A stretch of DNA of 64,000 nt from the IMG/VR virus record IMGVR_UViG_3300044645_000935, one strand, 5' to 3'. The notes below the pieces were generated by a model. It was not told where the DNA came from. It searched no databases and saw nothing but the letters and a program-made list of their open reading frames with translations. Position numbers and translations under genes: made by a program. This document shows, in pieces, positions 11,125-44,958 of the stretch (positions within the stretch are counted from its first letter, which is position 1; every line of letters begins with the position of its first letter). Source of the DNA: an uncultured virus (IMG/VR IMGVR_UViG_3300044645_000935) (taxonomy: Duplodnaviria; Heunggongvirae; Uroviricota; Caudoviricetes; Crassvirales).

Positions 11125-11687
11125 TGAAATCCCCATTTTACTTTATTGCCAAGCCCGTTGATGGAAAGAGGTATGCAAATACCAAAGAGATAGCAGGAGT
11201 AGAATTAATAGTCAGCACATCTGAAGAGGACCACAAGTTCTCAAACAGATTTGCTGAGGTGGTAGAAACACCTCTAGGATATAAAGGTCCAATTGAACCC
11301 GGAGACATTTTACTTGTACACCACAATGTGTTCAAGTTTTACAATGATATGAAGGGCCGTCAAAAAAGCGGTCGTTCTTTTTTTAAGGACGATTTATTTT
11401 TTATAGAGACTGAGCAGTTCTATATGTTCAAGAAGAACAATGTTTGGAATTCATACAGCAGGTATTGCTTTGTCAAACCAATTAAAACAACAGATAGCTA
11501 CATCAAGAAGCCTTTTACTGAAGAGCCTCTAATGGGGATTATGAAGTACCCTAACGAGTACCTCTTATCACAAGGCATTAAAGAAGGTGACCTAGTTTGT
11601 TTTAGTCCTGACAGCGAATATGAGTTTACTGTTGACGATGAGAAGCTGTATCGAATGTATGACCACCAAATAACAATCAAATTATGA
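11124..11687 (+). CDS. GroES-like (tandem Cpn10-fold) protein
   Basis: IEPGDILLV and IKEGDLVCF motifs resemble Cpn10 VKVGDxV; start at TAATG overlap. Confidence 0.55.
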   Translation: MKSPFYFIAKPVDGKRYANTKEIAGVELIVSTSEEDHKFSNRFAEVVETPLGYKGPIEPGDILLVHHNVFKFYNDMKGRQKSGRSFFKDDLFFIETEQFYMFKKNNVWNSYSRYCFVKPIKTTDSYIKKPFTEEPLMGIMKYPNEYLLSQGIKEGDLVCFSPDSEYEFTVDDEKLYRMYDHQITIKL

Positions 11688-14671: not shown

Positions 14672-17103
14672 AGAATATAACAATCGAAATCAATGCGGTA
14701 TCGTTCCCTAGTCAGTTGGCTACGGATGCTGAGAAAGCATCTGATACCTTTGGTTTGCAGGTTGGTCAGGCTATTCAATATGAGTGGTTCCGTAAGGATG
14801 GTAACTCATGTAGATACTATGGCCAATGGCAAGACTTTAGAAGACTTAGACTATATGCCCGTGGAGAACAGCCCATTGGTAAATATAAGAATGAATTAGC
14901 AATTGATGGAGATTTATCTTATTTAAATCTTGATTGGACTCCTGTTCCTATTCTTCCTAAGTTCATTGACATTGTAGTAAATGGTATGTCTGACCGATTA
15001 TTTAAGGTTAAGGCGTATGCTCAAGATGCAATGTCTCAAGCAAAGAGAAGTAAGTATCAAGACCTTATTGAAGCTCAAATGATAGCTAAGCCTGTGCTTG
15101 AAATTATTCAAGAAGAGACAGGTGCTAATCCTTTTATGATGGAGCCTGATGAGCTTCCTGAAACTGATGAGGAGCTATCACTATATATGCAGCTTAACTA
15201 TAAGCCTGCTATTGAAATCGCTGAAGAAGAAGCTATCAATACTATTTTTGATGAGAACCATTACGATGATATCAGAAGAAGAATTGATTATGATATTACA
15301 GTAATTGGGATTGGTATTGCTAAGCATGAGTTCTTACAAGGAACAGGTGTTAAGCTTTCTTATGTAGACCCCGCTAATGTAATCTATAGTTATACTGAGG
15401 ACCCATACTTCAAAGATTGTTTTTATTGGGGAGAGATTAAGACTGTTCCTATCACTGAGCTAATGAAGATAGACCAATCGCTCACGAAAGAAGACCTTCA
15501 GCAAATTACTCAGTACAGTCAATCATGGTATGATTATTATAACGTAGCTCAGTTCTATGAGAACAGTATGTTCTACAGAGATACTTGTACGTTGTTGTAC
15601 TTTAATTACAAGACCACTAAGAAGATTGTTTACAAGAAGAAGAATCTTGAAGGCGGTGGGTCTAGAGTAATTGAGAAAGACGAAAACTTTAATCCTCCTG
15701 CTGAAATGATGGAGGAAGGAAACTTTGAAAAGATTGAAAAGACTATTGATGTATGGTATGAAGGCATCATGGTTATGGGTACAAATATCCTTTTGCAATG
15801 GAAAATGTCTGAGAATATGGTTCGTCCTAAATCAGCATCTCAACACGCTTTACCAAACTATGTGGCAGTAGCTCCACGAATGTATAAAGGAGTTATTGAA
15901 TCATTGTGCAGAAGAATGATTCCTTTTGCTGACTTGATTCAGATTACCCACTTAAAGTTACAGCAGGTTATTGCTCGTACGGTACCTGATGGTGTATTTA
16001 TTGATGCTGATGGATTGAATGAGATTGACTTGGGAACAGGTCAGGCATATAGTCCTGAGGATGCATTAAGACTATACTTCCAAACAGGTTCTGTTATTGG
16101 ACGTAGCTATACTCAGGATGGTGAATTCAATAATGCACGAGTTCCTATTCAGCAGCTTACATCCAATTCAGGGGCATCTAAGACGCAGATGTTGATTACT
16201 AATATGAATCATTACATTGATATGATTCGTTCTGTAACGGGACTTAATGAAGCTAGAGACGGTTCTACACCTGACCCTAATTCTTTGGTTGGTATACAGA
16301 AGTTAGCAGCGTTGAATTCAAATACAGCAACAAGACATATTCTAGATGGCTCATTGTATCTGTATCGTTCAATGGCTGAAGCTTTGACATATAGAGTTGC
16401 TGACATTTTGGAATACTCTGACTTTGCTGACGAGTTTGCAAATCAAATTGGTAAATACAATGTATCTATCCTTAATGAAATTAAGGACCTATACATTTAT
16501 GACTTTGGTATTTTTATTGAAGTATCTCCTGATGAAGAGCAGAAGGCTCAGCTAGAAGCTAATATTCAGATGGCTTTGTCTAAAGGTGACATTAACCTTG
16601 AAGATGCAATTGACATTCGTGAGATTAGAAATCTAAAGCTTGCTAATCAATTGCTCAAGATGAAGCGAATGAAGACGCAGGAGCGTGCAGAAAAAATGGC
16701 TATGCAGCAACAAGCAATGCAAGCACAGCAGCAAATGCAGATTCAACAAATGGCTTCTGAAACAGCAATGCAAAAGATACAGTTAGAGACTCAAGCTAAG
16801 ATGCAGTTGAAGCAAGCTGAAATTGCATTTGATATTGAGAAAAGCAAAAACGAAGCTATGTTGAAATCTCAATTGATGAGAGAAGAGTTTGAGTATAATA
16901 TGCAATTGAGAAACATGGAAGTTGGTAGCTTGACTGAAAGAGAAAAAATGAAGGAAGAAGCCAAAGCAAAAAGAATTAGTCAACAGAATAGCGAGCAATC
17001 TAAGTTGATTAATCAACGCAAGAATAATCTTCCTCCTTTGAATTTTGAATCTAATGAGGATAGCCTAGATGGATTTGATTTAGCTGAATTTGAGCCTCGA
17101 TAA
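14668..17103 (+). CDS. Portal protein
   Basis: Follows TerL; 811 aa; C-terminal Q-rich coiled coil. Confidence 0.85.
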   Translation: MKNITIEINAVSFPSQLATDAEKASDTFGLQVGQAIQYEWFRKDGNSCRYYGQWQDFRRLRLYARGEQPIGKYKNELAIDGDLSYLNLDWTPVPILPKFIDIVVNGMSDRLFKVKAYAQDAMSQAKRSKYQDLIEAQMIAKPVLEIIQEETGANPFMMEPDELPETDEELSLYMQLNYKPAIEIAEEEAINTIFDENHYDDIRRRIDYDITVIGIGIAKHEFLQGTGVKLSYVDPANVIYSYTEDPYFKDCFYWGEIKTVPITELMKIDQSLTKEDLQQITQYSQSWYDYYNVAQFYENSMFYRDTCTLLYFNYKTTKKIVYKKKNLEGGGSRVIEKDENFNPPAEMMEEGNFEKIEKTIDVWYEGIMVMGTNILLQWKMSENMVRPKSASQHALPNYVAVAPRMYKGVIESLCRRMIPFADLIQITHLKLQQVIARTVPDGVFIDADGLNEIDLGTGQAYSPEDALRLYFQTGSVIGRSYTQDGEFNNARVPIQQLTSNSGASKTQMLITNMNHYIDMIRSVTGLNEARDGSTPDPNSLVGIQKLAALNSNTATRHILDGSLYLYRSMAEALTYRVADILEYSDFADEFANQIGKYNVSILNEIKDLYIYDFGIFIEVSPDEEQKAQLEANIQMALSKGDINLEDAIDIREIRNLKLANQLLKMKRMKTQERAEKMAMQQQAMQAQQQMQIQQMASETAMQKIQLETQAKMQLKQAEIAFDIEKSKNEAMLKSQLMREEFEYNMQLRNMEVGSLTEREKMKEEAKAKRISQQNSEQSKLINQRKNNLPPLNFESNEDSLDGFDLAEFEPR

Positions 17104-17149: not shown

Positions 17150-18244
17150 ATGGAATTGAAAGTAAGAGCACTAGACGTAATCGAACCAAAAGGGGTTCGA
17201 GAGTTAGAGAATGAATTAGTTGAGAAACATGAGCAGTCACTAAATAGTGACAACAACGAATATGCATCTGAAGGTGCAGTTCCCGTTGAAGATTCTGAGG
17301 CTGCTGAGTTTAATTTCAAAGATGAGGATGTTCTCTCATATATTGGTAAAAGATATAATAAGCAGATTAATTCATTGGATGATTTGGTTGCTGAGCGTCA
17401 AAACTCCGAACAATTGCCTGAAGATGTAGCTGCTTATTTGAAATACAAAAAAGAAACAGGTAGAGGATTTGAGGATTTCTTGCAATTGAAGAAAGACTTT
17501 GATTCAATGAATCCCGATGACCTACTTAAAAATTACCTTACTGCCACTCAAGAAGGATTGGATAGTGAGGATATTGAGGCTTTAATGGATGAGTATTCAT
17601 ACGATGAAGATTTGGATGATGAATCAACTATTAAGAAAGCCAAAATAGCTAGAAAGAAAATTATTGCTGAAGCTAAAAAGTACTTCAACAATCAGAAGGA
17701 AAAATATAAGCTCCCGCTTGAGTCAAGTACGGGGTTTGTTTCCGATGAAGAGAAGGAGTTGTACGAAAGCTACAAGCAGTATGTTCAAGAGGCTAAGACT
17801 ATCGAAGAGGAGACGAATCGAAAGCGTAGATGGTTTGACCAAAAGACAGATGAGGTCTTTAGTAAAGACTTCAAAGGATTTGAGTTCAATGTCAACGATA
17901 AAAGAATCTCGTTTTCTCCGGGTGATGCTAATGAGTTGAAAAGACTTCAGGCTACTCCCCAAAACTTTATTAACAAGTTTTTGGACGAGAGCGGAATGAT
18001 TAAGGACGCAGCAGGTTATCACAGGTCACTAGCCGTAGCAATGAACCCTGAAAAGTTTGCCAAGTTCTTCTACGAGCAAGGCATGGCTGATGCTACTGAT
18101 GACGTTACACGTAAAATCAAAAACATCAACATGACTGAGCGTAGAGCTCCTGAAGTAGGCAAGCCAACAGGAGGAATGCAGGTGAGAGCGGTAAACCCTG
18201 ATTCAGGTAGAAACCTGAAAATCCGCAGCGCAAAAAAAATGTAA
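17150..18244 (+). CDS. Probable scaffolding protein
   Basis: Acidic, helical; between portal and capsid. Confidence 0.65.
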   Translation: MELKVRALDVIEPKGVRELENELVEKHEQSLNSDNNEYASEGAVPVEDSEAAEFNFKDEDVLSYIGKRYNKQINSLDDLVAERQNSEQLPEDVAAYLKYKKETGRGFEDFLQLKKDFDSMNPDDLLKNYLTATQEGLDSEDIEALMDEYSYDEDLDDESTIKKAKIARKKIIAEAKKYFNNQKEKYKLPLESSTGFVSDEEKELYESYKQYVQEAKTIEEETNRKRRWFDQKTDEVFSKDFKGFEFNVNDKRISFSPGDANELKRLQATPQNFINKFLDESGMIKDAAGYHRSLAVAMNPEKFAKFFYEQGMADATDDVTRKIKNINMTERRAPEVGKPTGGMQVRAVNPDSGRNLKIRSAKKM

Positions 18245-28259: not shown

Positions 28260-28670
28260 ATGACACTAAAGATACGAGAGTTAAACGATAGCGATTACGA
28301 AGACATTCTTGTAGGATGGTGGAAAGATTGGGGATGGGAGCCTCCACAAAAAGATTTGCTTCCTGATGATGGTAAGGGTGGGATTATAATTTACGATGGA
28401 GATGTTCCTATTTGCGCAGGCTTTATGTATCTTAGTAATTCCAAGCTTGCATGGGTTGAATGGATAGTATCCAACAAAAGATATACCAACAGAATACTAA
28501 GAAAAGACGCTATGACTTTATTGGTATCAAGACTGACTGAGATATGCAAGTTAGTTGGATGCAAGTATGTGTATGCTTTAATTAAGCATCCTAATTTAAT
28601 AAATACGTATGAGGGTCTTGGCTATATCAAGGGAGACTCTTACACAAGCGAAATGATAAAAGTCTTATAA
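28260..28670 (+). CDS. GNAT-fold acetyltransferase-like protein
   Basis: MTLKIRELN, YEGLGY end motif; position typical of podoviruses. Confidence 0.65.
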   Translation: MTLKIRELNDSDYEDILVGWWKDWGWEPPQKDLLPDDGKGGIIIYDGDVPICAGFMYLSNSKLAWVEWIVSNKRYTNRILRKDAMTLLVSRLTEICKLVGCKYVYALIKHPNLINTYEGLGYIKGDSYTSEMIKVL

Positions 28671-28671: not shown

Positions 28672-29502
28672 ATGGCAATGTTCACAACTATAGCGGCAGC
28701 AACAAGCTTAGCAGCAACAGCCGCAACAACAGGTATGTCATTTGCTCAAGCGGGCAAACAGCGTAAGCTTATGAGAAAAGCTGAAGCTGAGGCAGATGCC
28801 GCAATGCAACAAGCTCGTAAAAAGCTAGAGGTAAATCAATTTGACAAGTTAGCTATTAATAAAGAACCTTATGAGTTAGCTAGAGAAGCTTTGTTGGCTC
28901 AAGGAGCTCAGGGGATTCAAGCAGGTGTAGAGAGTGAAAGAGGAGCTGCTGCTACAGCAGGTCGTATTCAGATGGCTCAACAAGAAGGGCAAGCTGCTAT
29001 TAGAGGTCAGATGGGACAGGAGATGCAACAGCTTGAAATGCTTAGTGCACAAGAGGATGCAAGACTACAAGACATTGGTGTTCAGCTAGACCTTGAAGAA
29101 GTAGCAGGTGCGCAGCTTGCTGCTGCTAACGCTCAAGAGTTGGCTGCTAATGCTACTGCTCAGGGCATGGAAGGACTAACTAGTTTAGGAAGTCAACTAG
29201 CTGAGAAGGCTCCATTGTTTGAGAAGAATAGAGCTGCTGAACAAAAAGCTTTAGGAAATATGAGTCTTAATACTCAACAGTTTCAAGATATTGGTAATAT
29301 TTCTCAGAAAGGAGGATTAGGTGCAGAGCAAACAGGAGATTTTACAAACTTAGATTTACAAGCAGTAAGTAAAATGAGTCCTCAACAATATAGAAAGTTT
29401 AGGAAAGCACTTACTCCTACACAAAGACAATTGATATTTGGAGCTGACCAATTTCAAACACTTTATAATCAATACGCCCCCGTTACATCACTATCTAGAT
29501 AA
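28672..29502 (+). CDS. Probable internal virion/ejection protein
   Basis: Ala/Gln-rich helical with hydrophobic N-terminus. Confidence 0.6.
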   Translation: MAMFTTIAAATSLAATAATTGMSFAQAGKQRKLMRKAEAEADAAMQQARKKLEVNQFDKLAINKEPYELAREALLAQGAQGIQAGVESERGAAATAGRIQMAQQEGQAAIRGQMGQEMQQLEMLSAQEDARLQDIGVQLDLEEVAGAQLAAANAQELAANATAQGMEGLTSLGSQLAEKAPLFEKNRAAEQKALGNMSLNTQQFQDIGNISQKGGLGAEQTGDFTNLDLQAVSKMSPQQYRKFRKALTPTQRQLIFGADQFQTLYNQYAPVTSLSR

Positions 29503-31307
29503 TGGCTACATATTACAAATATGCTGAACGTAGTGCTGAGTCTCAGGTAAATTGGGCTGAGATAGGCAAGAACATGACCGATATGCTTCGTCAAGAAGTT
29601 CAGGTCAGAGAGCAAAAGAAAGCGGCTTTAGATGAAGCAACTCGTCAAGCTGCTGAACAAATATCAAATGCCCCTCAGGGTCAACACGTAGATGCGAAAG
29701 CAGAAGCCATAAGACTTGCTGACCAAGCAAGTAAATATTTGCTTATGCAAAATAGGCTTATGAAGCAAGGCATCCTAGACCCTAAAGATTACATGATTGC
29801 TAATCAGAATTTAACTGATGACATAAGAACAGCATATTCATCAATGAAGGCTTTTCAAGAGAACTATGGGAAGCTTATGGAGCGTGCTCAAAAAGATGAG
29901 TCGTCTGCAATTGAATTAGCTAGACTAGAAAAGATTCAAGGATACGGTAACTTTAGACAGTCAGGATTTTTTATTGATGCCCCTACAGGAAAACTAAATG
30001 TTGGCCTAAAAGAGGAACAGATAATTGATGGCGAGAAAGTAATTGGTTTGAAGAAAGGAAGTACCGTTGGTATGCAGTATATTGATGGTGCAATCTATGG
30101 TCAGATTGATAAATATAAGTATCGAGAACCATTGAAAGAAATGGCTACTAGTCTTGGTAAATTTATCACATCTGATGTTACTAGAGGTACTTTAAATAGT
30201 ATAGGATATGTTACCTCAATATCTGATGCTAGACGGAGAATTGATGAGACAAAGATTGGCTCAGATGACAAGAAAATATTATATGATTTTTATGCGTCAT
30301 CATTTGATGCTATAGAATCTATGTTGGCTAATGAAAACCATAAAGCTTCTATACTTGTGGATGCAATGGCATCTAAAGGATACTTTTGGACAGACGACCC
30401 TGACGTGGCAGCTAAGAATCCAAAGGCTGTACTTGAGGTAATAGACCCAAATACAGGTAGGGGAGTTATGACATTTACAAAGGAGCAGGACCAAGCTGCT
30501 TCTGAATTTATGATGCAGCAGTTCTTAGGCATGATAGATATTACTGAAGAACAAAAGTCAACAGGTCAAATTCAAAGACAAGACCCATCTGCTGCTGTTC
30601 TTGATAGAGTTGATAAAGTAGAAGAAGCTAAAAACTTTGGTAGACAGTTAGGTGCAGCATTGAAGAGTGGTGATGATACAGAAGTTGCAAATGCTATTAT
30701 ATACTTGGCTCAAAAGGCAGGAAAAAGAGTCAACAAAGACGGTGCTACAATTACAATTTCCAACATGGATGGAACAGGACTGTCTACATTTGATTTAAAT
30801 AATGACCCTGATAAAATAGCTAGTTCAATGATTAGTGCTTTTGGTACAAAATTACCTGAAGATACTATTCTTAAATTTACTAGAGAGACATATAAAGGTA
30901 ATCCTGCCAACAAAACAGCTACAGCAAGTGGTTTTGAAGATGAAGATGTAGAAGAAACTGAATCTCCTTACCAACGCCTTAACACTTTTGTCGATGAAAA
31001 TACAGCTACAGCAATTATTGATGTTGGTGATATAGAAGATGAAGGGCTAGTTGCAGATAAGCTTAATGAAATGTATGGTCCAAATTTAGGAGTTGAATTT
31101 AAAGTTGGAAATACATTGGCTAATTCTATTTATGTTGTTGTTAATGGAAAAGAATCTCCTAACTATGACGTAGGAGCAGGGAAGAATGCAGCTGCTATAA
31201 GGCAAATGAAGAAATTTATTTTGAATGCTTATGCTCCGGGAGCTTCATTGACTGAAAGAGATTTGGCTGCGGAAACAGCATTAGCAGACCTTGGAATTTT
31301 AGATTAA
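29502..31307 (+). CDS. Probable internal virion/ejection protein
   Basis: Position between small and giant ejection-type genes. Confidence 0.6.
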   Translation: MATYYKYAERSAESQVNWAEIGKNMTDMLRQEVQVREQKKAALDEATRQAAEQISNAPQGQHVDAKAEAIRLADQASKYLLMQNRLMKQGILDPKDYMIANQNLTDDIRTAYSSMKAFQENYGKLMERAQKDESSAIELARLEKIQGYGNFRQSGFFIDAPTGKLNVGLKEEQIIDGEKVIGLKKGSTVGMQYIDGAIYGQIDKYKYREPLKEMATSLGKFITSDVTRGTLNSIGYVTSISDARRRIDETKIGSDDKKILYDFYASSFDAIESMLANENHKASILVDAMASKGYFWTDDPDVAAKNPKAVLEVIDPNTGRGVMTFTKEQDQAASEFMMQQFLGMIDITEEQKSTGQIQRQDPSAAVLDRVDKVEEAKNFGRQLGAALKSGDDTEVANAIIYLAQKAGKRVNKDGATITISNMDGTGLSTFDLNNDPDKIASSMISAFGTKLPEDTILKFTRETYKGNPANKTATASGFEDEDVEETESPYQRLNTFVDENTATAIIDVGDIEDEGLVADKLNEMYGPNLGVEFKVGNTLANSIYVVVNGKESPNYDVGAGKNAAAIRQMKKFILNAYAPGASLTERDLAAETALADLGILD

Positions 31308-31327: not shown

Positions 31328-34300
31328 ATGGACGAATTAAAAAAGTTATACAACACATTAGTCCTGAAGGGACGTTACAATAAATCTTTTGAGGATTTCC
31401 AATCTGAATGGCAGAACCCTCAATATCAGAATCAGGTTTATGACGATGTCTCTAAACTAAGACTGTATACCAAGGACAGAGATACGTTCATGAAAAAATA
31501 TGCAGGGTCTGCTCCTGCTCCTGCTGCTGTAGAAACTCCTACTGCTGTTGAAGAAGAGGCTGTGGAACAACAGCCAAAAAAAAAAGATACTACGGTATTA
31601 CCTTCGGGAGTTGGTTCTTCGGCTTCGTCCGTATTAGCTCCTGACGATGAAACAAAAGCTTTATTTAAAAAGTATGCAGAAGAGTCTTCTTCAAGGAAGA
31701 CTTTTGCTGATAGAATAATACCAACTACACCTGCAACGAGTCCTGAGTTTCAAAAAGAATTAAAAAAAGTAGAGCAAAATAAATCACTTGCTGAAAGTGA
31801 ATTTGATAAGCTAGGTGAAAAGCCAAAGGTAGAGCATAACAAATATCTTAATGAGCAGTTAGCTCAAATTAATAAAGACCTTATTGATAAGAATGAAGAA
31901 TTTGTTGTCCCCGAAATGGAATACCGTTTTGGCGGATTAGGATTTAAGTTTGAGGAAGCGGGGGCTACAGGAGATTGGATGGACGTAACTGCTCCTGACG
32001 GCAAAAAAATACAAATATCATTAAACAATTTTTTAGATAGTAAATCTTCAGAAGAAGCATTTAAACTTCAAAAGTTTATTCAAGACAATACACCTATGAA
32101 AGGTTTGTTTGTTCTTGAGAAGAGTTTAAAGGACCAAGAAGTTAAGATATTCAGCAATCAAAAGGAAGTTGATGATGAAGTTGCTAAAATAAATAAAGAG
32201 GCTACTGCTGTAAATCAAAAGCAAAAAGATTTTCTTTTAAGACAACAGGCTTATGAGAAGGAAGTAGATGCACTTAATTCAATTCCTGAATCTCAAAGGA
32301 ATAATCCTGAGTTTATTAAAAGGGTTGATGCTGCAGAAAAAACAAGATTGTCTTTAGTTAATGAGCTTCCAACTTTACTTAGTGAAGAACAGAAGCTTAC
32401 AAACAAGGCATCTTCTTTAGAGAAGTCTGTTGGTAGATATGTTGAAACAAAAGCACGTCAAGGGGGTTGGCTTGGTGGTGTAGGTAATTCTATTTTAGAG
32501 GGAATTAGTAGTATTGCGGCAGGTACAACAAATGTATTTGTAGATGCTACTATGGAACTTGGGTCTGCTGAATTTTTAATTAGCCCTGAAAATTTAAGAA
32601 AAGGTACAATTGAAAGAGCATCTAAAATAGGTGTTGCACCTCCATCTGAAAACCAATCTATTCAAGATTGGAAAAAGACATTGACTCCTGAGCAATTGGA
32701 TAGATGGGAAGATGAAATGGATGACTTCGGTAAAAAGCTTGTAAAAGCTGATATCATGCCATACATAAGAGAAGGTCTTAGAATAAGAAGAGGTGATGAA
32801 AATACTACTATTGAATGGACTAATCTAAAACAAGAAGGTTTTTGGGGAGGAGCTATATTAGGTTTAGCAAAATCATTGCCTGCTATGATTGGTAGCTCAA
32901 CCCCTGCAGGTTGGGCTCAGAGAACAGCTCAAATGTATTCTCAGATTTCAGATGGATTAATGCAAGAGATGGAAAAAGACCCTGCATTTGCAAACATATC
33001 TGAAGTTGAAAAAGCTGCAATCGTTGCTCCTATTGGAATAGCATCATCTGTTTTAGAAGCATATGGTCTTAGAAACGTATTGCAAAGTAAGGGTATAGTA
33101 ACTAACATTACTATGGCTATGTTAGGTAAGGCAGGAAGAGGAGTAGGTTATACATCACTTAGAGAATTAGCAGAGAATGAAGTAAAAAGTAAAATTGCTA
33201 GAGGGGCATTAGTTCTTACTGCTGCAGGACTTGCTGAAGGAGAGACAGGTTTTTTACAACAAGGTGTAGAGACAGGGTTCAAGGCCATATATAATGAGTA
33301 TATAAAAGGTGATAAGTATTTTCAAACTCCTGAAACTATAGAGAAAGCTGTAGGTGAAATGTTCTATGCAGGAGCTCAAGAAGCTATTGGTGGTTTCACA
33401 CTAGGAATTCCTAATGCGGTTAGTGCTGCATATAGTAAAGCAGGGTTTCTCAAAATGAATGATAAAACATTTGAGATGTTTGAGAACATGGCTAATGATG
33501 AAACCCTTCAAAGCGCATATATAACTAGTCTTAAAGAGAAAGTAGCTAGTGGTAGAATATCCCCTTCTGATGCCAAGCAAGAGGAACAAAACTATAGAAA
33601 TGCAGTTGGTATATATCGTCAGCTACCTGATGGATTAACTGTTCAGCAGAAGAAGGAGGCGATGAATCTTTTGAAAGAAAGAAAAGATTTAGAGCAATAC
33701 ATTCAAGGTAAAGATGGTGCGCTAGTTACTCCTCAAAAAAATAGAATCAATGAAATAAATCAGGAGCTTTCAAAAATAGCTGAACAAGGAGCTACTCAGA
33801 AAATTCAATCAGAGGCTGATAATGTAAAAGCTCAGAGAGCTGCTAAGATTGCTGAGTTGAGTAAGGCTATTGAGGATGACGATACAGCTACAGAGTTAAA
33901 CCTAACTACTAAGTTACCAACTGAAGAGAGACAAAGGATTGAGAAAGAACTACAGGATTTAAAAGAAGAAGAAGCCTCTGCTCAAGAGAGAGAGATGGCT
34001 AATATTCCTTTTGAGGCCCCGACATATAAAGTAAATGGGCAAGAAGTTAAGCCTGAATTTATTGACTACTTAATGAGAGAGTATAGCAAGGAAGAAATTC
34101 TTGCTATGAATATTGAAATTAGTAATAATGATAAAACAGGAGTCTTAGAAAGACTTCAAGAATTTACAGGAATTAAACCAACAGAACAAGATGCCATTCA
34201 AGAGCAAGCAGCAGGTCAAGTACCTGTACAGCCAACAGCCGGAGTTGGCCAAGAAGTGGAGCAAGGAGTATCCCAAGCAGAACCTCAAGTCACTGCCGAA

Positions 34301-37300
34301 GCGGGTATCCAAGAAGAAGTAGCCCCTAAAGTTGAGCTAACCGATGACCAAATCGTTGAGTACAATCCTACCGAAGAAGTATCAGATAAGAATAATGAGG
34401 TACTTGGTAAGGTGTTACAATCAAAGAAATTTGAGCCACAGGCAGAGCCACAAAGAACAGACCTTGGTGACTCAGTTGTATTTGAATACAACAACTTTGA
34501 TGATAATGAGACAAGAACTCGATTTACTTTTAATAAGAAAAAAGATGGAACTATTACAGGTGTTGGTGTAAAAGTAGAAAGAAATGTAGGAGATATTCGT
34601 AATACTGATTTATTCAGAAACTATGTAAACTCTAAGAGAGCAGAAGCAGAAGCACAGCCTGAGGTGACCGCTCAACCTACTGTAGCACCTCAACCTACTA
34701 CCCTTACTGAAGCAGAACAGCTTGCTAAAATGGAGGAGATGTTTGCGCAGGAAGAAGCTCCTGTCACTCCTACTGAACCCGCTAGAACTTCAGGAGTAAC
34801 TGTTGCTGACCCAATAGGAATGGACTCTTTGAGAAATAGAGTGAAGGACAACGCCAAGAAACAAGTTATTGACTTCGCTCAGAAGACATTGACTACATTG
34901 AAGTCTGTGCTTCCTGACTTTGAAATCGTAATACACGATGATGAGAACAGCTACAGAAATGCAATGGCTTCTATCAATGGTCCCGCTGAATCAGCAGGGT
35001 ACTTTTCTTATGTTCAAAGACCTAATGGTACTTATGTTGGCAAGATTGACATCAACCTTAACGTGGCTGATAATACAACAATTGCTCATGAGGTTGCGCA
35101 TGGTATAATGCGTAAAACATTTGGTGAGAACACAGAAGCTTTTAAGACTTTTAAGAATAGAGTTGCAGCAGCAATAAATAGAAAAGGTAATAAAGCATTA
35201 ACCGAATTTGCAAGTCAATATGAGGAGAATGATTCATACGAAGAGTACATAGTTGAGTTAGCTGCTAGGCTTTCTCAATCAGATAAAAATATATCTTCTA
35301 GTCTGTTACAGGATATTGCTTTAATAATAAATGACTTTGTATCTAGGATTACTAATGGAGCATTTGTTCCATTTCAAAATGCTAGAGATGCCAAGCAGGC
35401 TATTGATTTCCTTAGAAACATATCAGAGTCTATTAAGAAGGGTGAAGCAATTAACCCTGCTGACATTACAGCTATTCAGGAAAACCTATCTGCTCCTATT
35501 GGTACCCCAAGCGAAATCAATCCTGCCCCTAAGGGTAAGGCTTCTTTGAATTTCCCTAAGACTCCGCTTCCATTATCATTCGTTACCGAAGCAGATAAGA
35601 TTGACATCGAGGCTTTAATCGATGACATCGTAGCTAAGAAGCAGAAGGTATGGTTTTGGATGGCTGACCAACTAGGTCGTGGAAACTACTTTGATGAAGT
35701 GGTTGGTGATACGCATTACCTAGATGCGGGACCAAGCTTTGCACTAGACCCTGCCAACCGAAGCAAAGGAATCCTTTGGGCTAGTGGTCTACCTGAGAAA
35801 ACTTTGACGAATCAAATCAATCAGGCTGACTATATATTCTTTATTAGTGGCTCTCCTGAAAAGGCTAAGCTATTTAACAAAAGGGTATTAGACTTATTGG
35901 CTGAAAGAGTCAATAAGACATCAGACTTTAATAAGTTCAGAGAAGCTCTCAACAACTTTGAAAAAGAAACAGTAGAACTAAGAACTCTTAGAGACGCACT
36001 TAATGGAGTTAACTCATTCAAAGAGTTGGCTGATAGTCCAAAGAGAAAGCCATTTCTTATAGCACTTGGTCAAATAGGTGCATTGAAGACTGCACCTAAA
36101 GGTTCATTAAAAGAACTGCTAGGTTCATTCAATGCATTCATTGACTACAATGAATTGAGAGATGGTTTCTACAAAGAAAATGGATTCGGTCAAAACGATA
36201 TCATGCTTGTTGGTAAACCAACAGCAGTCTCAGGCAAAGCCCCTCACTCTACTTACGAGTTTGCTATTAGCGGTGAAGTAGTTGGTGTACCTGATAAGAA
36301 GATTGACTCTTGGGATATCATGCCTGAGTCAATCAAAGAAAAGTATAAGGATGTAATTGGCGGTAGAGAAGAAAAGACCAAGCCAATGCAGACTAAAGTT
36401 ATTGCTGCCGAGACAGGTGTAATTAGAGAGCTTGAGCCAAGAATGAAAGGTAAGGCTCAGCTGATTGGTAAAAAGGCTAGATTAGCAGGAGTAGTATTAC
36501 AAGATTATAATACAGCTCAAATATTAGAAAAGGAAGGAAAGTCACCTTTAGAAATCAGAAGAGCTACAGGTTGGGAAAGAGGAATAGATAAGAAGTGGAG
36601 ATATGAAATCCCTGATGGCAAATTTAAAAAATTTGAACTTGAAGATTTAAAGGAAGCAAAAGACTCTGATGGCGCTCAAATAAGAGTAGCTAAAATAACA
36701 GACATATTTGATTCTCCTGAATTGTATGAAGCATATCCATTTATCAAAAACTATAGGATAGTTTTTAAGGATATGCCTGAAAACAAGCATGGAAAACATA
36801 GTTCTTCTGCAAAGAAGATTACCATCAATAGCAAAAACTATATAGACCCCGATAAAAGAAGCGAGGCTGAGCTAACTATTATTCATGAACTTCAACACGC
36901 AATTCAGTATGAAGAATTATTTGAAAGAGGGGCAAGTACTAAGACCGCTAAAATTATTTTTGATGGGTTATTAAAGAATGCAAAAAATAATGTAGAAAGA
37001 AAAACACTTTTGCATGAAGCTGCAAGAAAACTTTTCCCTAATAGCGAAAGATTACAAAAGCCTACTAAAGATTTACTTCAGGATGCATTAAATAAATATG
37101 CTATTCTAGAACTATTAAGTTATAAGAAAGAAACAAAAGAGATAAAAAAGGAACTCGAAGAGTTACTAAAAGAATACAAAGAAGAACTTGATAAAGAAGT
37201 CTTTGAAAAACTTAAATCTAGAGTTGAATTTACACCTGCTGACGCTTACAATATTTATTACAGAGTTGCAGGAGAAGTTGAGGCAAGAAATGTTGAGTTC

Positions 37301-40300
37301 AGAAGAAGTCTTACTGAAGAACAAAGAAGAAATACATTATTATCTGAGACTGAAAATATCGATAGAGCTGACCAAATTCTTTTTGACAATCCCAAACTAA
37401 TGTTTGAAGGGGTTGAAGAATCAACTCAGAAGGTAAAAGGGAAAGCTCAACTTAGCAGTGATGCCAAAGCAATAAATGTTGTAAAGCAGGCACGTGCTCA
37501 GGGATTTTCTGAGAATGCAATTAGACAATTCCTTCAAGGAAAAGGTCTTACTGAAGAGGCTATAAATAAGGCAATGGCTACAGATATTCCTGCAGCAGGA
37601 AAAATCACGTTGTCCGAAGAGACTCTTAGTGGTTATGATTCTTTGATGAAGAAGCTAGGGAATCTAGCTGCGAAAGGAATGCCGCTTACTGAAGTAATTA
37701 AAAAGCTAAAGAACTCAAAAGCATACAAAGATTCTACTGACGTACAAAAAGAAAAGCTAGTACGTGAGGTTCGAAAGATGTTTGGAGCTAGAGAGAAGTC
37801 AGCTCCAAAAGCAGGTAGACTTATTGGCATCGTCAATGATGTCACTAAGATTACCATGACTGAAAAGGAAATCCTAAATAAAAGATTAAAGGACCTAGCA
37901 GAAGGAGCGAAGGATGCAGTAAAAGCTTGGAGAAAAATCACAGCTGATTTAGGTAAGGAAATTAAGGAACTAGCTTCAACAGGCAAGCTTACTTCAAAGC
38001 AAGTAACTAGAGTAACAACTAGGCTGTTAAACATAAATGCGTTCAATGAAAAGTCAGTAAAAGACTTCATTGACTACATGGCAAATGTATTTGCTGACGC
38101 TGAGTACCGTGATATAATAGATGGACTAAGAGGAAAGATAGCTAACGCTAAGAAAAACATTACCTCTAAGATTGGTATTGCTGATACGTTGCGAGGGCCA
38201 TTGAACAAATTGCTTTCAATAAATCCTTTGCTTATCCCTGACGCATACCTAGACAGATATGCTGAGATAGTTGAGATGCTTGGAGCTAGTCAGCAAGTTC
38301 TTCCACTAGAGCAGTATGATGTAGTAAAGAGTGATACTGAAGCCATCTTGCGTGCTGTTAATGACGAGCAGTCAAGAGCTTACGAGTTGGCTGATATCCT
38401 AGAAAATTCAGAGAACAAAGTTTTCACCAAGGGTGGTGAATTAGATTACGCTGCTACCTTAAAAGAAATGGTTAAGCAGGGTGAGATAACTGAGGAGGAT
38501 GCAGACCTTATGCGCAAGTATAAGAAAGAGATTGTGCCTCAGGATGAAAAGCAAAAGATGTCTGAAGAAGAAATAGAGGAGAAGAAGAAAGAAGCAATTG
38601 ACAAAATCAAAGCTTCAAAGATAACAGGCATTGATGGACTTCCTTCTCAAGAAGAGAAAGCTTTTGCTGAGAAATTTGCTGAGCTCATCAAAAATGTTTC
38701 TGAAGAAACTTTAATGAAGTTGGGACTTAATGATTTGACAAACCTATCCAAGGTAATTGACAACATTAACAAAAACTATCTTCCTAGTTTTGCTTATCAA
38801 GTATACCTAAAAATAGATGGTATAAATGATGGAAAGATTATTGAAGATGCTACAAGTAATGTTTCGCTTCCAAAGATTTCTACTGCGATAGGTAAAATTA
38901 AAAACCTAGTTACTAAGGAAGGTGCATTGTATGAAGCAGTCAAAAGAATACCTCTTTTCTTTATTGACCAAGCCCTTGGTCTTAAAAATAAAAAAGTATT
39001 TAATGCGTTGCTTTTAAAGACAGCTCAAGCTGAAGCGAAGTACAAAGCAGAACTGAAAAGAATCAATTCAGCATTAGAGAAAGCAGAGCAAAAGGTTGCT
39101 AGTTCATTTTCTTTTAACGAAGAAAAGTTAGCTCTATCTAAGATGAAGATGATGACTTATCTACGTCAACTTGAATTCGAATCAAATCAAGGTAACGAGC
39201 AAGTAAATCCTGCATTGGATTACATCAATAAAACCATAGAGCACATTGAGAAACAAAGAGCTGCTAAAAAGTATGGTAAAACTGACTTAGAAAACTTGAA
39301 GTTTATACGCTCGATGTATCAAATAGATGGGCAGATTAACCTTGAAAAATTGTACAATTCTTTTAATCAAGCTGAGAAGGATGCCATCAATGATATTCAA
39401 AAGATAAATGAAAGCCTTAGAAGTAAGGCTGAGTTTACTTCTAATGTCATGAGAGGTCAGGTATTTAATGGTTTGAATAATTACTTGCACCTAATTGTAT
39501 TAGGTGATGGTAAGAAGGGTGATATTAAATCAGCAACAGATATTACAAACAGAGCTGATAACAATATGAGACCATCAACAAAGGCTAAATCTTTGGAAGA
39601 AAGAACCAAGGGAGCGAAGCCTATTAACTTTGATGTATTTGCTTCAGCAAGTCGTGGTGCTAAGTATGTGTTGTTGGATTACAATCTTACAGGACCAATT
39701 AAAACTGCTAGAATTGCATTGAATCAACTTGAGAAAACTTTAGATGAAAGAAAGAATGTAACTAAAGTTCAAAGAGAAGTATCCAATACATTAACTAAAG
39801 CATACGAAGAGGCCGTAGATAATTTGCTTGTCAACAACATCATGGATGATACGACAGCAGACATAATCGTGGAATACATCAAAAGAATGGGATATCGTTC
39901 TGTGCTTGCAGGTACAGGAAGATTTACAGCTGAATTAGCCTCTAACATATCCTTTGCTTTTCTTGCTGAACCAAAAGCATTCACGTTAGGAACTAAATAT
40001 GCTAACATTATCATGTCTCCACTTGGACCATCCGTATTGGAGAACCTAAATAGTACTCAGATAAATAGAATATTCCCTGAGGATAGCCTATCAGGAAACT
40101 TCATGGACACTAGTGCTATGAAACAGAGAGTTGGCGGGGGTAAGCTATCTGATTCTCGTGTGATTAATAAAATTCAGCAGCTTTGGAATCTTACAGGTAA
40201 AAGATATACCAATGGGGTTGAGGTATTGTCAGATAACCTTATTTCAACTCCTGATAAAATTGTAATTAGAGCACTTTGGTTTGGCTCATTTGCTCAGGAG

Positions 40301-41641
40301 TTTAAGAAGGTATCAGGCAAGGATGTTGACTTTAAATTAATTGGCGAGAACAATAAGGAATATTTAAAAGAAAATAAGGAAGCCATCGATAAAGCAACAG
40401 AAATTGCTGACAGAACTTCTGTTCAAGCAGGTGCCACGGACAATACGTTCATGGGTATTCTTAAAGGAGCATCTAAACCGAATCAAACAATACCTACTAA
40501 GATTTACAATAACTTCAATAGTTACATGACTAGGTTCTTGATATTCGAATTTATGAGTGCGAGAACAGGTGTGTATGCAATGATGGGTGACGGACCAATG
40601 AGTAGAACTAAGGGAGCCATGTTGTTGGGTGCTGTTGCTACACGTATGACTGTATACTCTATGTTAAGCAAGATGCTTGCAGGTGGTATAATAGAATTGG
40701 CTGCTCCATTATTTGGTGTAGAAGATGAAGAAGAAGAGGAGGACGATAAAACATTCCTTCAAAGTCTAGGCCAAGCATTTATAGGTACGGTTGGCTCTTT
40801 GTTCTTTGGTCGAGACTTTGGTAACGCAGTAAAAATGTTTGTAAACTTTGGTCTAGAGAAGTTTAATCAAGAGTATCTTGACTTCCTAAGGGATGGAGAA
40901 TACGACCAATATGAAGATGCAATAGCGTATTCTATCATTCCACAAGGAAAAGAAGATAAGCAAAGCATAGATGATGTGCTATTTAAATTAGGAGGTTCTT
41001 TTGGTCCTGCTGTACAAACAGCAAGACTAGTAGGTGAGAACATATTGTCAGGTTCAGTACAGGCTGTGCTATCAGGAGATACTACTAAGAAAGAAGCAGA
41101 CGCTATAGAGCGTGAGAGAAGAGTAGTAACTCAGAGAATACCTCTAGAGATTCTAGGTAACGCAGGATTTATTCCTTTGTACAAAGATGTAAGGACAGTA
41201 GTGAACAAATCAATCTACGCAGACCTTAAAAATAAAAAGTCAAAAGCTGCTGAGCCGGGGGCTGCAAAAGAAAAGTTTGATAAGTTAGAAGACTTGAATG
41301 AATTAAAGAAGAAGACTACAAACAAAGATGAGCGGAAGGCTATCGACCAAAAGATTCTTGAGATTGTAGGAAGTGAAGAGGCTAAAGCTTCAGTTGATAA
41401 ACAGAAAGAAGCATTGAAGGCAAAGAAAGAATCTCTTCTTTATGACTCAAGCAAAGGTATTAGATATCGTAATGAGTCCACAATGAAGCGTCAGAATCCT
41501 GCTTTGTGGAGAAAAAGATTTGGACCTAATTCTGATTGGGATAAACAAACTAAAGCATCAGAATCTGTTGATAGTAAACTAAGAAAGGTTAGGGAGAAAA
41601 GAGAGGACAAGGAATACAAAGAAAAAACTAAGAGAAAATAA
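31328..41641 (+). CDS. Giant polyvalent ejection-type protein, 3437 aa (two HExxH zincin-like modules, LPD23-like segment)
   Basis: AHEVAH; TGWERGIDKKWRYEIPD; IHELQHAIQ...GEVEAR. Confidence 0.8.
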   Translation: MDELKKLYNTLVLKGRYNKSFEDFQSEWQNPQYQNQVYDDVSKLRLYTKDRDTFMKKYAGSAPAPAAVETPTAVEEEAVEQQPKKKDTTVLPSGVGSSASSVLAPDDETKALFKKYAEESSSRKTFADRIIPTTPATSPEFQKELKKVEQNKSLAESEFDKLGEKPKVEHNKYLNEQLAQINKDLIDKNEEFVVPEMEYRFGGLGFKFEEAGATGDWMDVTAPDGKKIQISLNNFLDSKSSEEAFKLQKFIQDNTPMKGLFVLEKSLKDQEVKIFSNQKEVDDEVAKINKEATAVNQKQKDFLLRQQAYEKEVDALNSIPESQRNNPEFIKRVDAAEKTRLSLVNELPTLLSEEQKLTNKASSLEKSVGRYVETKARQGGWLGGVGNSILEGISSIAAGTTNVFVDATMELGSAEFLISPENLRKGTIERASKIGVAPPSENQSIQDWKKTLTPEQLDRWEDEMDDFGKKLVKADIMPYIREGLRIRRGDENTTIEWTNLKQEGFWGGAILGLAKSLPAMIGSSTPAGWAQRTAQMYSQISDGLMQEMEKDPAFANISEVEKAAIVAPIGIASSVLEAYGLRNVLQSKGIVTNITMAMLGKAGRGVGYTSLRELAENEVKSKIARGALVLTAAGLAEGETGFLQQGVETGFKAIYNEYIKGDKYFQTPETIEKAVGEMFYAGAQEAIGGFTLGIPNAVSAAYSKAGFLKMNDKTFEMFENMANDETLQSAYITSLKEKVASGRISPSDAKQEEQNYRNAVGIYRQLPDGLTVQQKKEAMNLLKERKDLEQYIQGKDGALVTPQKNRINEINQELSKIAEQGATQKIQSEADNVKAQRAAKIAELSKAIEDDDTATELNLTTKLPTEERQRIEKELQDLKEEEASAQEREMANIPFEAPTYKVNGQEVKPEFIDYLMREYSKEEILAMNIEISNNDKTGVLERLQEFTGIKPTEQDAIQEQAAGQVPVQPTAGVGQEVEQGVSQAEPQVTAEAGIQEEVAPKVELTDDQIVEYNPTEEVSDKNNEVLGKVLQSKKFEPQAEPQRTDLGDSVVFEYNNFDDNETRTRFTFNKKKDGTITGVGVKVERNVGDIRNTDLFRNYVNSKRAEAEAQPEVTAQPTVAPQPTTLTEAEQLAKMEEMFAQEEAPVTPTEPARTSGVTVADPIGMDSLRNRVKDNAKKQVIDFAQKTLTTLKSVLPDFEIVIHDDENSYRNAMASINGPAESAGYFSYVQRPNGTYVGKIDINLNVADNTTIAHEVAHGIMRKTFGENTEAFKTFKNRVAAAINRKGNKALTEFASQYEENDSYEEYIVELAARLSQSDKNISSSLLQDIALIINDFVSRITNGAFVPFQNARDAKQAIDFLRNISESIKKGEAINPADITAIQENLSAPIGTPSEINPAPKGKASLNFPKTPLPLSFVTEADKIDIEALIDDIVAKKQKVWFWMADQLGRGNYFDEVVGDTHYLDAGPSFALDPANRSKGILWASGLPEKTLTNQINQADYIFFISGSPEKAKLFNKRVLDLLAERVNKTSDFNKFREALNNFEKETVELRTLRDALNGVNSFKELADSPKRKPFLIALGQIGALKTAPKGSLKELLGSFNAFIDYNELRDGFYKENGFGQNDIMLVGKPTAVSGKAPHSTYEFAISGEVVGVPDKKIDSWDIMPESIKEKYKDVIGGREEKTKPMQTKVIAAETGVIRELEPRMKGKAQLIGKKARLAGVVLQDYNTAQILEKEGKSPLEIRRATGWERGIDKKWRYEIPDGKFKKFELEDLKEAKDSDGAQIRVAKITDIFDSPELYEAYPFIKNYRIVFKDMPENKHGKHSSSAKKITINSKNYIDPDKRSEAELTIIHELQHAIQYEELFERGASTKTAKIIFDGLLKNAKNNVERKTLLHEAARKLFPNSERLQKPTKDLLQDALNKYAILELLSYKKETKEIKKELEELLKEYKEELDKEVFEKLKSRVEFTPADAYNIYYRVAGEVEARNVEFRRSLTEEQRRNTLLSETENIDRADQILFDNPKLMFEGVEESTQKVKGKAQLSSDAKAINVVKQARAQGFSENAIRQFLQGKGLTEEAINKAMATDIPAAGKITLSEETLSGYDSLMKKLGNLAAKGMPLTEVIKKLKNSKAYKDSTDVQKEKLVREVRKMFGAREKSAPKAGRLIGIVNDVTKITMTEKEILNKRLKDLAEGAKDAVKAWRKITADLGKEIKELASTGKLTSKQVTRVTTRLLNINAFNEKSVKDFIDYMANVFADAEYRDIIDGLRGKIANAKKNITSKIGIADTLRGPLNKLLSINPLLIPDAYLDRYAEIVEMLGASQQVLPLEQYDVVKSDTEAILRAVNDEQSRAYELADILENSENKVFTKGGELDYAATLKEMVKQGEITEEDADLMRKYKKEIVPQDEKQKMSEEEIEEKKKEAIDKIKASKITGIDGLPSQEEKAFAEKFAELIKNVSEETLMKLGLNDLTNLSKVIDNINKNYLPSFAYQVYLKIDGINDGKIIEDATSNVSLPKISTAIGKIKNLVTKEGALYEAVKRIPLFFIDQALGLKNKKVFNALLLKTAQAEAKYKAELKRINSALEKAEQKVASSFSFNEEKLALSKMKMMTYLRQLEFESNQGNEQVNPALDYINKTIEHIEKQRAAKKYGKTDLENLKFIRSMYQIDGQINLEKLYNSFNQAEKDAINDIQKINESLRSKAEFTSNVMRGQVFNGLNNYLHLIVLGDGKKGDIKSATDITNRADNNMRPSTKAKSLEERTKGAKPINFDVFASASRGAKYVLLDYNLTGPIKTARIALNQLEKTLDERKNVTKVQREVSNTLTKAYEEAVDNLLVNNIMDDTTADIIVEYIKRMGYRSVLAGTGRFTAELASNISFAFLAEPKAFTLGTKYANIIMSPLGPSVLENLNSTQINRIFPEDSLSGNFMDTSAMKQRVGGGKLSDSRVINKIQQLWNLTGKRYTNGVEVLSDNLISTPDKIVIRALWFGSFAQEFKKVSGKDVDFKLIGENNKEYLKENKEAIDKATEIADRTSVQAGATDNTFMGILKGASKPNQTIPTKIYNNFNSYMTRFLIFEFMSARTGVYAMMGDGPMSRTKGAMLLGAVATRMTVYSMLSKMLAGGIIELAAPLFGVEDEEEEEDDKTFLQSLGQAFIGTVGSLFFGRDFGNAVKMFVNFGLEKFNQEYLDFLRDGEYDQYEDAIAYSIIPQGKEDKQSIDDVLFKLGGSFGPAVQTARLVGENILSGSVQAVLSGDTTKKEADAIERERRVVTQRIPLEILGNAGFIPLYKDVRTVVNKSIYADLKNKKSKAAEPGAAKEKFDKLEDLNELKKKTTNKDERKAIDQKILEIVGSEEAKASVDKQKEALKAKKESLLYDSSKGIRYRNESTMKRQNPALWRKRFGPNSDWDKQTKASESVDSKLRKVREKREDKEYKEKTKRK
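34191..34322 (+). CDS. Overprinted 43-aa basic protein MPFKSKQQVKYLYSQQPELAKKW...KKK (+1 frame)
   Basis: ATG after A-rich leader; resembles recalled MPFKS..PE.AK.W small phage proteins. Confidence 0.7.
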   Translation: MPFKSKQQVKYLYSQQPELAKKWSKEYPKQNLKSLPKRVSKKK

Positions 41642-43343: not shown

Positions 43344-43564
43344 CCGTTTTCTATGTTTATATCGTTATCGTATAGAATTTCTCTCAATCTGTTTCTGCAA
43401 CTCTGATAGGTTTGGTACTGCTCGTCAGTCAGGTCCTCGTACTTTATCTTACTTCTTAACCATTGGTCGTACTCCCATAGAGTTGAGCGCATATTCGCTC
43501 CATCTATGGAATTCTTCCACTCATGGTAATCCTCAGGTAAATTAAAGATTAGTTTTGCTTTCAT
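43340..43564 (-). CDS. Conserved hypothetical phage protein (MKAKLIFNLPED type)
   Basis: Recognised motif; coupled. Confidence 0.75.
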   Translation of the reverse strand: MKAKLIFNLPEDYHEWKNSIDGANMRSTLWEYDQWLRSKIKYEDLTDEQYQTYQSCRNRLREILYDNDINIENG

Positions 43565-44745
43565 AAAAGTCTTTTTTAAAGTGATTGATAGTGTAGTCTT
43601 TCTTCTTTGTTACTGCCTTGTATATGTCCCGTTCAATACCTCCTTCTGAGAATATCCAATAGACCTTATTATCTAGTCTCTCCTTGGTTGTCATCCTGTC
43701 CTTGCTCTGCCAATAACTCGTGGCACTAAAGTCAATGTTGTAATACACCAAGTAGTCAGCCTGACGTAGGGATATCCCTTCTCTGCCCGACACAATCTGT
43801 AAAGCAATGTGCTTATTAGTGTCTTCGAACACGCTCAGCTCATTAGTCAGCTCATCACCAAACACTTGCTTCAAGGCGTTATACTCTTCTTTAAATTTAT
43901 AGAATATCCCTATCTTACTTCCTTGAAATTTTTGTTTAATGAACTCCGCCTTGGTGGTGTCCAAAACCATGCTGTTCCCACTCTCAAACTTAATTGTCCC
44001 ACTAGATATCTGATGTACCTTCATCATTAATTTCACGGGAGTGTCTGCTAGTATGGTCTCTTCCTTCCCCTCTACCACTAAGTCACGCTTCAGTTTGTCA
44101 ATCAACCTGTAGGTTGACTCTTTCATGGGGACATATAAAACTTCCTCCTCAACTTGCGTTACAAAACCTGCCTCAGACTGCGTGTAGTTTATGGTGTATG
44201 GTTTCATTGCCTCAACAATAGACTCAAGCCCATGGCTGTAGTCATTCATCAGCAGTCCATTGATTTTCTTTTGCTTCACATTAACATACTTGTCGCAGAA
44301 TCTGTAGAAGTTTGAGAACTCATCGAATGGATTGTTTGGTATGGCATACACCTGATGGTACATCTGAGAATAACTTTCTTATTACTTGAGCCACCAATAA
44401 AGCTCTGCCGCTAGGCTTAGGGAAAGCCCCCATGCTGTGTGCCTCATCGCAGATAATTAGGTCCCACTTCTCATTGTCCATCACCAAGTGAAGGCTCTCG
44501 TAGTTAATCACAGTCAGATGATAATATGGTTTCAATACTTTGTAGTCTGCTTCAATCGTACTAATTGCTTTTTTCTTAGTAACGAACAGCACCCGCTCAG
44601 CCTCTATCCTTTCTGCAATACCTAGACTCGTGAGAGTCTTGCCTGTCCTTACCTCCATTGCTAGATATAAGAACCCATGCTCGTTTAGAATACGGGAGCC
44701 TTTCTCAATTATATCGGTTTGGTAATCCCTGAAATTGAATTTCAT
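43542..44745 (-). pseudogene. SNF2-type (SF2) helicase interrupted by a deletion/frameshift near 44375
   Basis: RDYQ, MEVRTGKT, CDEAH in one frame; ESYSQMYHQ..GREGISL..QSKDR in another; motif III (SGTP) missing. Confidence 0.75.
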
Positions 44746-44958
44746 TTGATTTAATTTTTTGTAGTGTTCGCAGCTGCGCAATATTTTATCTAGAACGTCT
44801 TGGTCTACTTTGTACTTTGGCACCTTGATAGTCTCTACCTTCTTGCCTCGACCAATCTTAGTGTCGTTGGTCTGAGTAATTATTGATTTCAAAGTTTCAC
44901 AATAGTGCAACATTGCCTCGTTACTATATCCTGCAATCCGCTCTACTATATTTTTCAT
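44746..44958 (-). CDS. Hypothetical segment in frame with the helicase N-terminus
   Basis: No stop before MKFNFRDYQ; may be a fusion. Confidence 0.5.

Follow-up and report, generated by a model that had tools for sequence, protein, structure and literature searches.

Genes lying wholly inside other genes are known from phages, where they are often lytic, and lambda Rz1 in Rz is a nested gene of this kind. Gene E of phiX174, nested in gene D, is treated as a lysis gene in a review of overprinting, the accessible sections of which state that the frame arisen de novo is narrower in distribution and usually without remote homologs (PMC8227390). Here we describe a 43-codon open reading frame (ORF) at positions 34191-34322 (+ strand) of a 64,000-nucleotide stretch of DNA from an uncultured Crassvirales virus (IMG/VR record IMGVR_UViG_3300044645_000935; the whole stretch is hereafter the window), in the +1 frame of the gene for a giant virion protein of 3437 amino acids (31328-41641, +). 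Like E in D and Rz1 in Rz, it is a short gene contained entirely in a longer one, on the same strand, in the +1 frame and with a start of its own. It differs from them in that the nested frame is widespread and conserved while the host segment is new, in that its family recurs in different host genes, and in that its peptide is soluble and basic and not a membrane lysis protein. Nested phage genes are already known; what is new here is the reverse polarity, with the old gene inside. From comparison of the sequences we conclude that the ORF is very probably a real gene whose frame is the ancestral one, the acidic linker that it casts in the host protein being a by-product. A literature search whose coverage excluded most subscription papers and the papers on the isolation of Elemovirus phages found no account of the family or of the overlap.

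The nested frame and its conservation in related phages

The nested gene encodes a peptide of 5.2 kDa (pI 10.3) from a PHROG 1375-related family, with 13 Lys or Arg residues against two Asp or Glu. The original prediction had described a leader followed by a stop-terminated 43-residue +1 frame whose codons mostly end in G or C, set in a host frame of low complexity, and this is how the locus reads: 38 of the 43 codons end in G or C, the ORF ends in TAG, both frames are open, and the corresponding 45 residues of the giant protein (residues ~955-999; 34190-34324, +) form an acidic low-complexity stretch with no Lys or Arg and eight Asp or Glu, nearly neutral at the amino-acid level. Windows of 43 codons with at least 38 G or C at host codon position 1 make up 0.3% of those in the giant gene, all of them at the nested ORF; the bias is partly forced, because a synonymous T at 11 codons would stop the host frame. 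When the +1 ORFs of the giant gene were compared by tblastn with the loci fetched for this study, a set enriched for the nested ORF by design, the nested ORF had 251 matches and the three others of at least its length 4-6, these three not being conserved.

Relatives were surveyed in two ways. An alignment of 12 homologs retrieved at least 599 viral-contig stretches, of which 389 were confirmed and 80 kept, a set biased to intact peptides. Among these 80 of at least 599, the peptide lay inside an open frame of at least 760 amino acids at 74 loci (one of which, L003, is identical to the window), inside a frame of 414-421 amino acids at four, and was free-standing at two, and the host frame was always one base before the nested frame. 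All 40 peptide-selected virus records held a single full-length copy, with an extra partial copy in two. The second survey used as an independent marker the gene for a 136-amino-acid acetyltransferase-like protein upstream of the giant gene (28260-28670, +). This set, the best 80 of 558 loci, leans to the clade of the window because the marker alignment was built from the window and 19 peptide-positive loci, and nine of its positives overlap the peptide-selected set. With 24 loci left out in which the giant gene was absent or visible over less than about 900 amino acids, 56 informative giant genes remained; 48 carry the nested ORF, and conservation of the ATG, proposed as a check in the original prediction, was found in 48 of 48, all of them in one and the same frame and with no interruption of it. 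At three further loci a free-standing copy begins 1-2 bases past the stop of the giant gene and there is no nested copy (two of these peptides are identical), and one locus (L115) retains the second half only, after an in-frame deletion.

In most relatives the nested gene stands directly behind the conserved N-terminal region of the giant protein (residues ~170-830; 31835-33817, +). Both Elemovirus and MW202828 carry it unannotated within their giant genes, in keeping with the suspicion that standard annotation misses it; in an Elemovirus of Flavobacterium sp. BAL314 the nested ORF occupies MT497017.1 54224-54349. Two of six records selected by their capsid gene had a match; none of the 80 capsid-gene loci (L169-L248) had a copy in the fetched flanks, which mostly stop short of the giant gene. 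Several variants of the nested segment were seen. L001 (12001-12126) and 22 loci of the marker set have a subtype marked by two conserved cysteines, in which the peptide has another middle than usual, and this subtype occurs in both of the host genes discussed below; the Pro2 codon is deleted and the ATG kept in L154 and L161; and in L020 (6001-6350) the second half of the segment is duplicated, startless, about 260 nucleotides downstream in the giant gene. Contigs of other phages join the window at the nested segment only (34180-34290), and a segment shared in this way may yield chimeric metagenome assemblies.

Selection on the two reading frames

Changes along the edges of minimum spanning trees were sorted into four classes by their effect in both frames, using two peptide subtypes of the marker set (18 and 22 sequences; eight positives that were duplicates or fitted neither ungapped pattern were left out). 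Changes silent in the nested frame and altering the host protein occurred at 0.124 and 0.121 per opportunity in the two subtypes, whereas those silent in the host and altering the peptide occurred at 0.012 and 0.005, so that the synonymous constraint on the host gene that the original prediction had suggested looking for is indeed present. The nested frame gave an omega of 0.080 (18 sequences, p = 1e-31) and 0.077 (22 sequences, p = 6e-38), p-values that overstate independence because the sequences are related; over all tests nested omega ranged from 0.077 to 0.125. Upstream of the nested ORF, in a stretch of the giant gene taken as control (26 pairs), omega was 0.12 for the host frame and 0.78 for the +1 frame. 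Over the overlap the host frame of the giant genes gave 0.80 and 2.05, neither different from 1.

The 68 unique ungapped copies of the peptide-selected set agree with this picture. Entropy at nested codon positions 1, 2 and 3 was 0.45, 0.24 and 0.88, host codon position 3 was the least variable over the overlap, and mean identity was 81% in the nested frame and 53% in the host frame. Among the variants listed from public contigs, the two that fall in the ORF, at 34208 and 34235, leave the peptide unchanged and alter the host, by codon reading. Taken together, the sequence comparisons indicate that purifying selection acts on the nested frame and that the host-frame segment is nearly neutral in giant genes. 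The proposal of a real nested gene thereby gains selection in its own frame (omega ~0.08), its translation being addressed below, and the companion proposal that the gene constrains the host-frame linker is likewise upheld, the host segment being shaped by the nested frame.

Were the conserved thing instead a motif of the host-frame linker, or an RNA or DNA element, the +1 ORF would be its shadow. Host-frame identity over the segment does stand at 50-75% where the flanks fail to align, and the DNA does form a conserved island beginning at the ATG. The substitution tests nevertheless contradict this explanation, since host-nonsynonymous, nested-synonymous changes are about ten times commoner than the rare host-synonymous ones; free-standing homologs moreover have stops in the host-equivalent frame, and some giant genes have lost or lack the segment. 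We regard it as extremely unlikely.

Signals for internal translation initiation

TAnnTTTG is the promoter consensus of Bacteroidota. The motif occurred in 7 of 111 regions upstream of nested copies and in 123 of 896 background regions, giving no signal of an internal promoter, and a search for sigma-70-like promoters returned one site, at chance level; initiation inside the late message is therefore the route that we infer. The putative internal start region of the window (34166-34190, +) is A-rich, with A at -3 and -6 and TAAA at -17 to -14, and has a predicted folding energy of -1.4 kcal/mol, being less folded than 95% of background starts. Among relatives, TAAA at -16 to -10 precedes 56% of nested starts (n = 101), 59% of true giant-gene starts (n = 104) and 8% of other +1 ATGs, and A at -3 is found at 81%, 76% and 37%, respectively; the median folding energy was -1.4 kcal/mol for nested starts against a comparison value of -5.9 kcal/mol. 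Initiation in Flavobacterium is promoted by upstream adenines at -3, -6, -12 and -13, according to the accessible part of one study (PMC6847099). In GC-rich phages, all seven distinct nested copies have a Shine-Dalgarno (SD)-like motif, compared with 5-24% of the background; the other genes of these phages mostly have SD-like leaders, and several of the seven copies are related. A further locus, L345, was excluded from this count because the frame open there appears to be a terminase gene extended by chance. The start signals thus match the type of host, A-rich and unstructured in Bacteroidota phages and SD-like in GC-rich ones, and a start signal of its own is evident for the nested gene across the family and middling in the window itself. 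Judging from these signals and from the selection on the frame, the nested ORF is in all likelihood translated, and ribosomes would start it internally on a late polycistronic mRNA.

Programmed frameshifting, with precedents in T7 10A/10B and lambda G-T, could in principle make the +1 frame the tail of a shorter giant protein whose C-terminus is basic. A single database entry, P0013, has 1033 giant-protein residues fused in frame to the peptide. Because about 165 residues present in P0164, an intact protein of 3577 amino acids from its cluster, are absent from P0013, we take it for a deletion or misassembly and rejected it as evidence of frameshifting. A frame entered by frameshifting would need no start of its own, but the ATG is kept in every one of the 48 positives; an in-frame stop lies at most two codons upstream in 25 of 112 copies, the start signals follow the type of host, and members of the family nearly always begin at the module. 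Slippery sites were sought in the alignments by eye only. Frameshifting thus appears very improbable, and internal initiation of an independent gene is the reading that we retain.

An old gene family and the origin of the nesting

The original prediction had likened the peptide to a widespread family of free-standing small phage proteins, and a search with the family profile bears this out: 1772 matches at E ≤ 0.001 among 1.84 billion representatives, so that stand-alone homologs exist in number. The module lies at or near the N-terminus in 129 of the best 150 matches by a simple pattern count, sometimes before long extensions, and the free-standing members come from phages as different as cyanophages and actinophages, and from many other groups besides. 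Copies are found in 023Pt_psg01 (annotated, before GroES), S-CBS2, P-RSP2, FlowerPower and C75C1; those of S-CBS2 (L085, 5001-5111), P-RSP2 (L086, 5001-5123) and C75C1 (L383, 4001-4105) are missing from the GenBank annotation. The PHROG 1375 profile, whose function is unknown, is matched by 30 of 50 family members at E ≤ 0.01 (best 2e-8) and, weakly, by the window peptide alone (E 0.012); mycobacteriophage Papyrus gp8, encoded directly after the portal gene, matches at 2e-18. Pfam holds no family for the nested peptide, and none of 50 members matched DUF3008 (PF11450) at E ≤ 0.1; an Atlas neighbour at 0.85 carries DUF3008 on 15% of its members, a weak lead. The module also begins long low-complexity proteins (P0023, P0034, P0068, P0082, P0109, P0156 and others), some with DUF6321 or DUF5661.

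A sister family, PHROG 16759/25121/22033, aligns with the nested family by hhalign (95%, E 1.5e-8) and shares its N- and C-terminal motifs, with ~10-12 additional residues in the middle. Its members include Phabio gp376, 201phi2-1 gp383 (32 bits on the nested-family profile), and the N-termini of 121Q gp51, CBB_322 and phAPEC6 gp161c, the module in Asteriusvirus and Mimasvirus being the start of longer virion proteins. An apparent match in phiR1-37 was discarded as spurious.

The nested copies occupy more than one host gene. With the overlap masked, host proteins grouped into 139 rows of giant proteins and 37 of scaffold-like ones, a few being left as singletons; one contig fetched repeatedly can account for several rows. 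Of these hosts, the scaffold-like gene is a homolog of the gene at 17150-18244 (+) of the window, labelled from its place between the portal and capsid genes; the window's own version is without a nested copy, and it is in other relatives that its homologs form the second host gene. The cysteine-containing subtype is present in both host genes within one clade (support 95). Since the nested arrangement is found with a second host gene, and in phages of other groups too, embedding or relocation probably took place more than once.

We therefore part with the word "overprinted" in the original prediction where it implies a new gene in an older one, as it is the nested frame that is widely distributed and the host segment that is novel and nearly neutral. 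Had the peptide arisen de novo in the giant gene, with free-standing copies escaping later, one might point to the many nested copies in the clade of the window and to a peptide tree without a reliable root. Classic overprinting of this sort predicts an inner frame of narrower distribution lacking outside homologs, but the inner frame has 1772 representatives and free-standing genes in cyanophages, actinophages and many other groups, which are also the more diverse; it predicts an outer frame conserved over the overlap, but the host segment is near neutral in giant genes (0.80, 2.05; 0.34 in scaffold-like ones), and two unrelated host genes carry the peptide. This origin is improbable. We favour instead that an old, widespread phage gene came to lie in the +1 frame of a giant virion gene, within a disordered stretch. 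A Lys codon shifted back by one base is read as Glu, Gln or Lys, and a basic gene would therefore cast an acidic hydrophilic linker; such a stop-free stretch rich in Glu, Gln, Ala and Val could be accepted by giant and scaffold-like proteins alike, which would be why embedding is tolerated. The sole demand on the peptide would be to keep T out of some third codon positions (those of 11 codons in the window). The insert may have come by recombination or by capture of an adjacent gene, as in the tandem free-standing arrangement.

Several observations weigh against this reading. By size alone the ORF is within chance, as the giant gene holds four ATG-started +1 ORFs of at least 43 amino acids in total, and the case therefore rests on comparison. 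The window leader ranks 34th of 138 +1 ATGs on the trained matrix (77th percentile), and the RNA runs, one of which is likely DNA, match as contigs, which are silent on strand, start and level. In scaffold-like hosts the host frame is constrained as well (omega 0.34, p = 0.01). Four of the 56 marker loci have no match in the record, one of these records being complete, and no match was found in the complete records G004, G057 and G059 or in the structural regions retrieved for the cultured relatives phi38:1, phi18:3 and Panino. Half of the segment has been deleted in frame in L115 (~14990-15120), a decayed copy, and an early stop in L314 (5808-5876) cuts the peptide to 22 amino acids. The nested gene is thus accessory and dispensable in some relatives. 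In the peptide tree, 10 of 206 branches reach support of 95 or more, and the starred ones force just 2-3 changes per state, a resolution too poor to fix the number and order of embeddings. Finally, the neighbours of 7 of the 58 free-standing loci considered below are for DNA metabolism or other functions only and those of 12 were not identified, and for 201phi2-1 gp383 no detection in virions by mass spectrometry (MS) is noted, whereas for its neighbour it is.

Possible function of the peptide

The peptide is predicted to form two short helices (residues 6-15 and 17-26) and a basic tail (pLDDT 85.5), and the median net charge of the family is +12. Fold searches with the 43-residue model returned nothing at E ≤ 0.001 in the PDB or a viral library, which says nothing for a new fold; the best viral rows were uncharacterised family members, and the best Z of the wide search was 2.2. 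A sequence search of the PDB summed weak matches on beta-propeller repeats and kringles and was rejected as an artefact.

Many nested phage genes being lytic, a lysis gene like Rz1 or phiX174 E was considered, and gene 48 of FlowerPower does precede a holin. The highest 19-residue hydropathy of the peptide is -1.06, however, arguing against a membrane segment, a lipobox is absent from 266 family rows, and the host gene is not a lysis gene. A lytic role is accordingly highly unlikely.

Neighbours were scanned at 58 free-standing loci (one to three proteins at each, 85 of the 131 encoded alongside), with near-duplicates and truncated nested loci dropped; the 58 are not independent. Terminase, portal, scaffold or capsid genes lie within 2.5 kb at 31 of the 58, and other virion genes at eight. 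T4 internal proteins and other small head proteins are likewise small, basic, late and linked to head genes. The nested family shares small size, basic charge and head-gene linkage with them, and a possible protease motif after the module in some long members, seen by eye; the motifs are repeated in some of these and presumably resemble prohead-protease sites. No clear sequence or fold match was found; the resemblance is a lead in the way of working only. In the virion table of phAPEC6, gp161c is represented by six peptides covering 28.9%, a figure for the protein as a whole and not for its N-terminal module (PMC7247149). We tentatively propose, at a little under even chances, that the peptide is a small basic nucleic-acid-binding head or assembly factor helping to package or neutralise DNA.

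A late factor that stays out of the virion and binds RNA, ribosomes or a host protein, for host takeover or counter-defence, would equally be encoded by a real gene, its place among head genes setting timing and dose only. The small, basic, helical peptide, its patchy presence among relatives, the silence on gp383 in the virion MS and the free-standing copies that adjoin replication genes would all suit such a role. Set against it are the strong link to head-assembly genes in both the free and nested states and the related module that begins virion proteins of 121Q, CBB and phAPEC6, and we think this role rather unlikely, if worth keeping in mind beside the head or assembly factor proposed above.

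Genomic context

The window is a phage genome in which terminase, portal, capsid and tail genes are all present. Its capsid protein is 45% identical to that of Elemovirus, 41% to that of Cellulophaga phi38:1 and 72% to that of MW202828, and the source is an Elemovirus-like Bacteroidota podophage; the sequencing runs that contain the window are lake, river and other freshwater metagenomes. The giant gene is the last of the structural module. Its product carries an LPD23 domain (36497-36625, +; 48.5 bits against a cut-off of 27) and matches phrog_32588; giant proteins of relatives match phi18:3 gp123, a distant homolog annotated as structural from tandem MS, and a single-protein search with the C-terminal region matched the same phage only. 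In the available passages of a preprint, phi24B gp47, a large polyvalent protein, is proposed as an ejection protein (bioRxiv 10.64898/2026.04.10.717836). The window protein is likewise a giant LPD-bearing virion protein; gp47 differs in having other LPD domains, and those passages do not mention a nested gene. The LPD23 domain, gene order, virion-detected homolog and phi24B passages suggest that the giant protein is probably an ejection (internal) protein. Of the original designation "giant ejection protein gene", the giant virion gene is thus confirmed, the ejection role being an inference from these lines. The two genes ahead of it (276 and 601 amino acids; 28672-31307, +) probably complete a three-gene ejection cassette, to judge from their order.

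The window encodes both a GroES-like co-chaperonin, ahead of the terminase gene, and GroEL (11067-11687 and 59861-61489). The gene for a helicase (phrog_62) is broken up into a pair of overlapping ORFs (43542-44958, -) that match consecutive parts of the profile (685-832 and 858-1128), which may be a frameshift, an error or a real split.

Implications

Overlapping viral genes are thought to be mostly overprinted, new inside old, and the nested locus shows the opposite polarity. Free-standing, giant-nested and scaffold-nested states are found side by side within a single phage group, so that the way in which a full overlap arises can be approached by comparison. What looks like a conserved linker motif in a virion protein of thousands of residues can turn out to be cast by a gene hidden in another frame. 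Since the nested form is present in cultured Elemovirus phages, its expression and function can be put to the test in a harmless laboratory host. On balance, and by a small margin over even odds, we suspect that the nested gene behaves as a mobile coding cassette, which time and again would insert itself into disordered regions of essential virion genes and recruit a start signal suited to the ribosomes of the host. In that case it would be a head component widespread among the abundant podophages of aquatic habitats and yet missing from their annotation, and nesting of an old gene would here for the first time be seen to recur through embedding and not through de novo overprinting.

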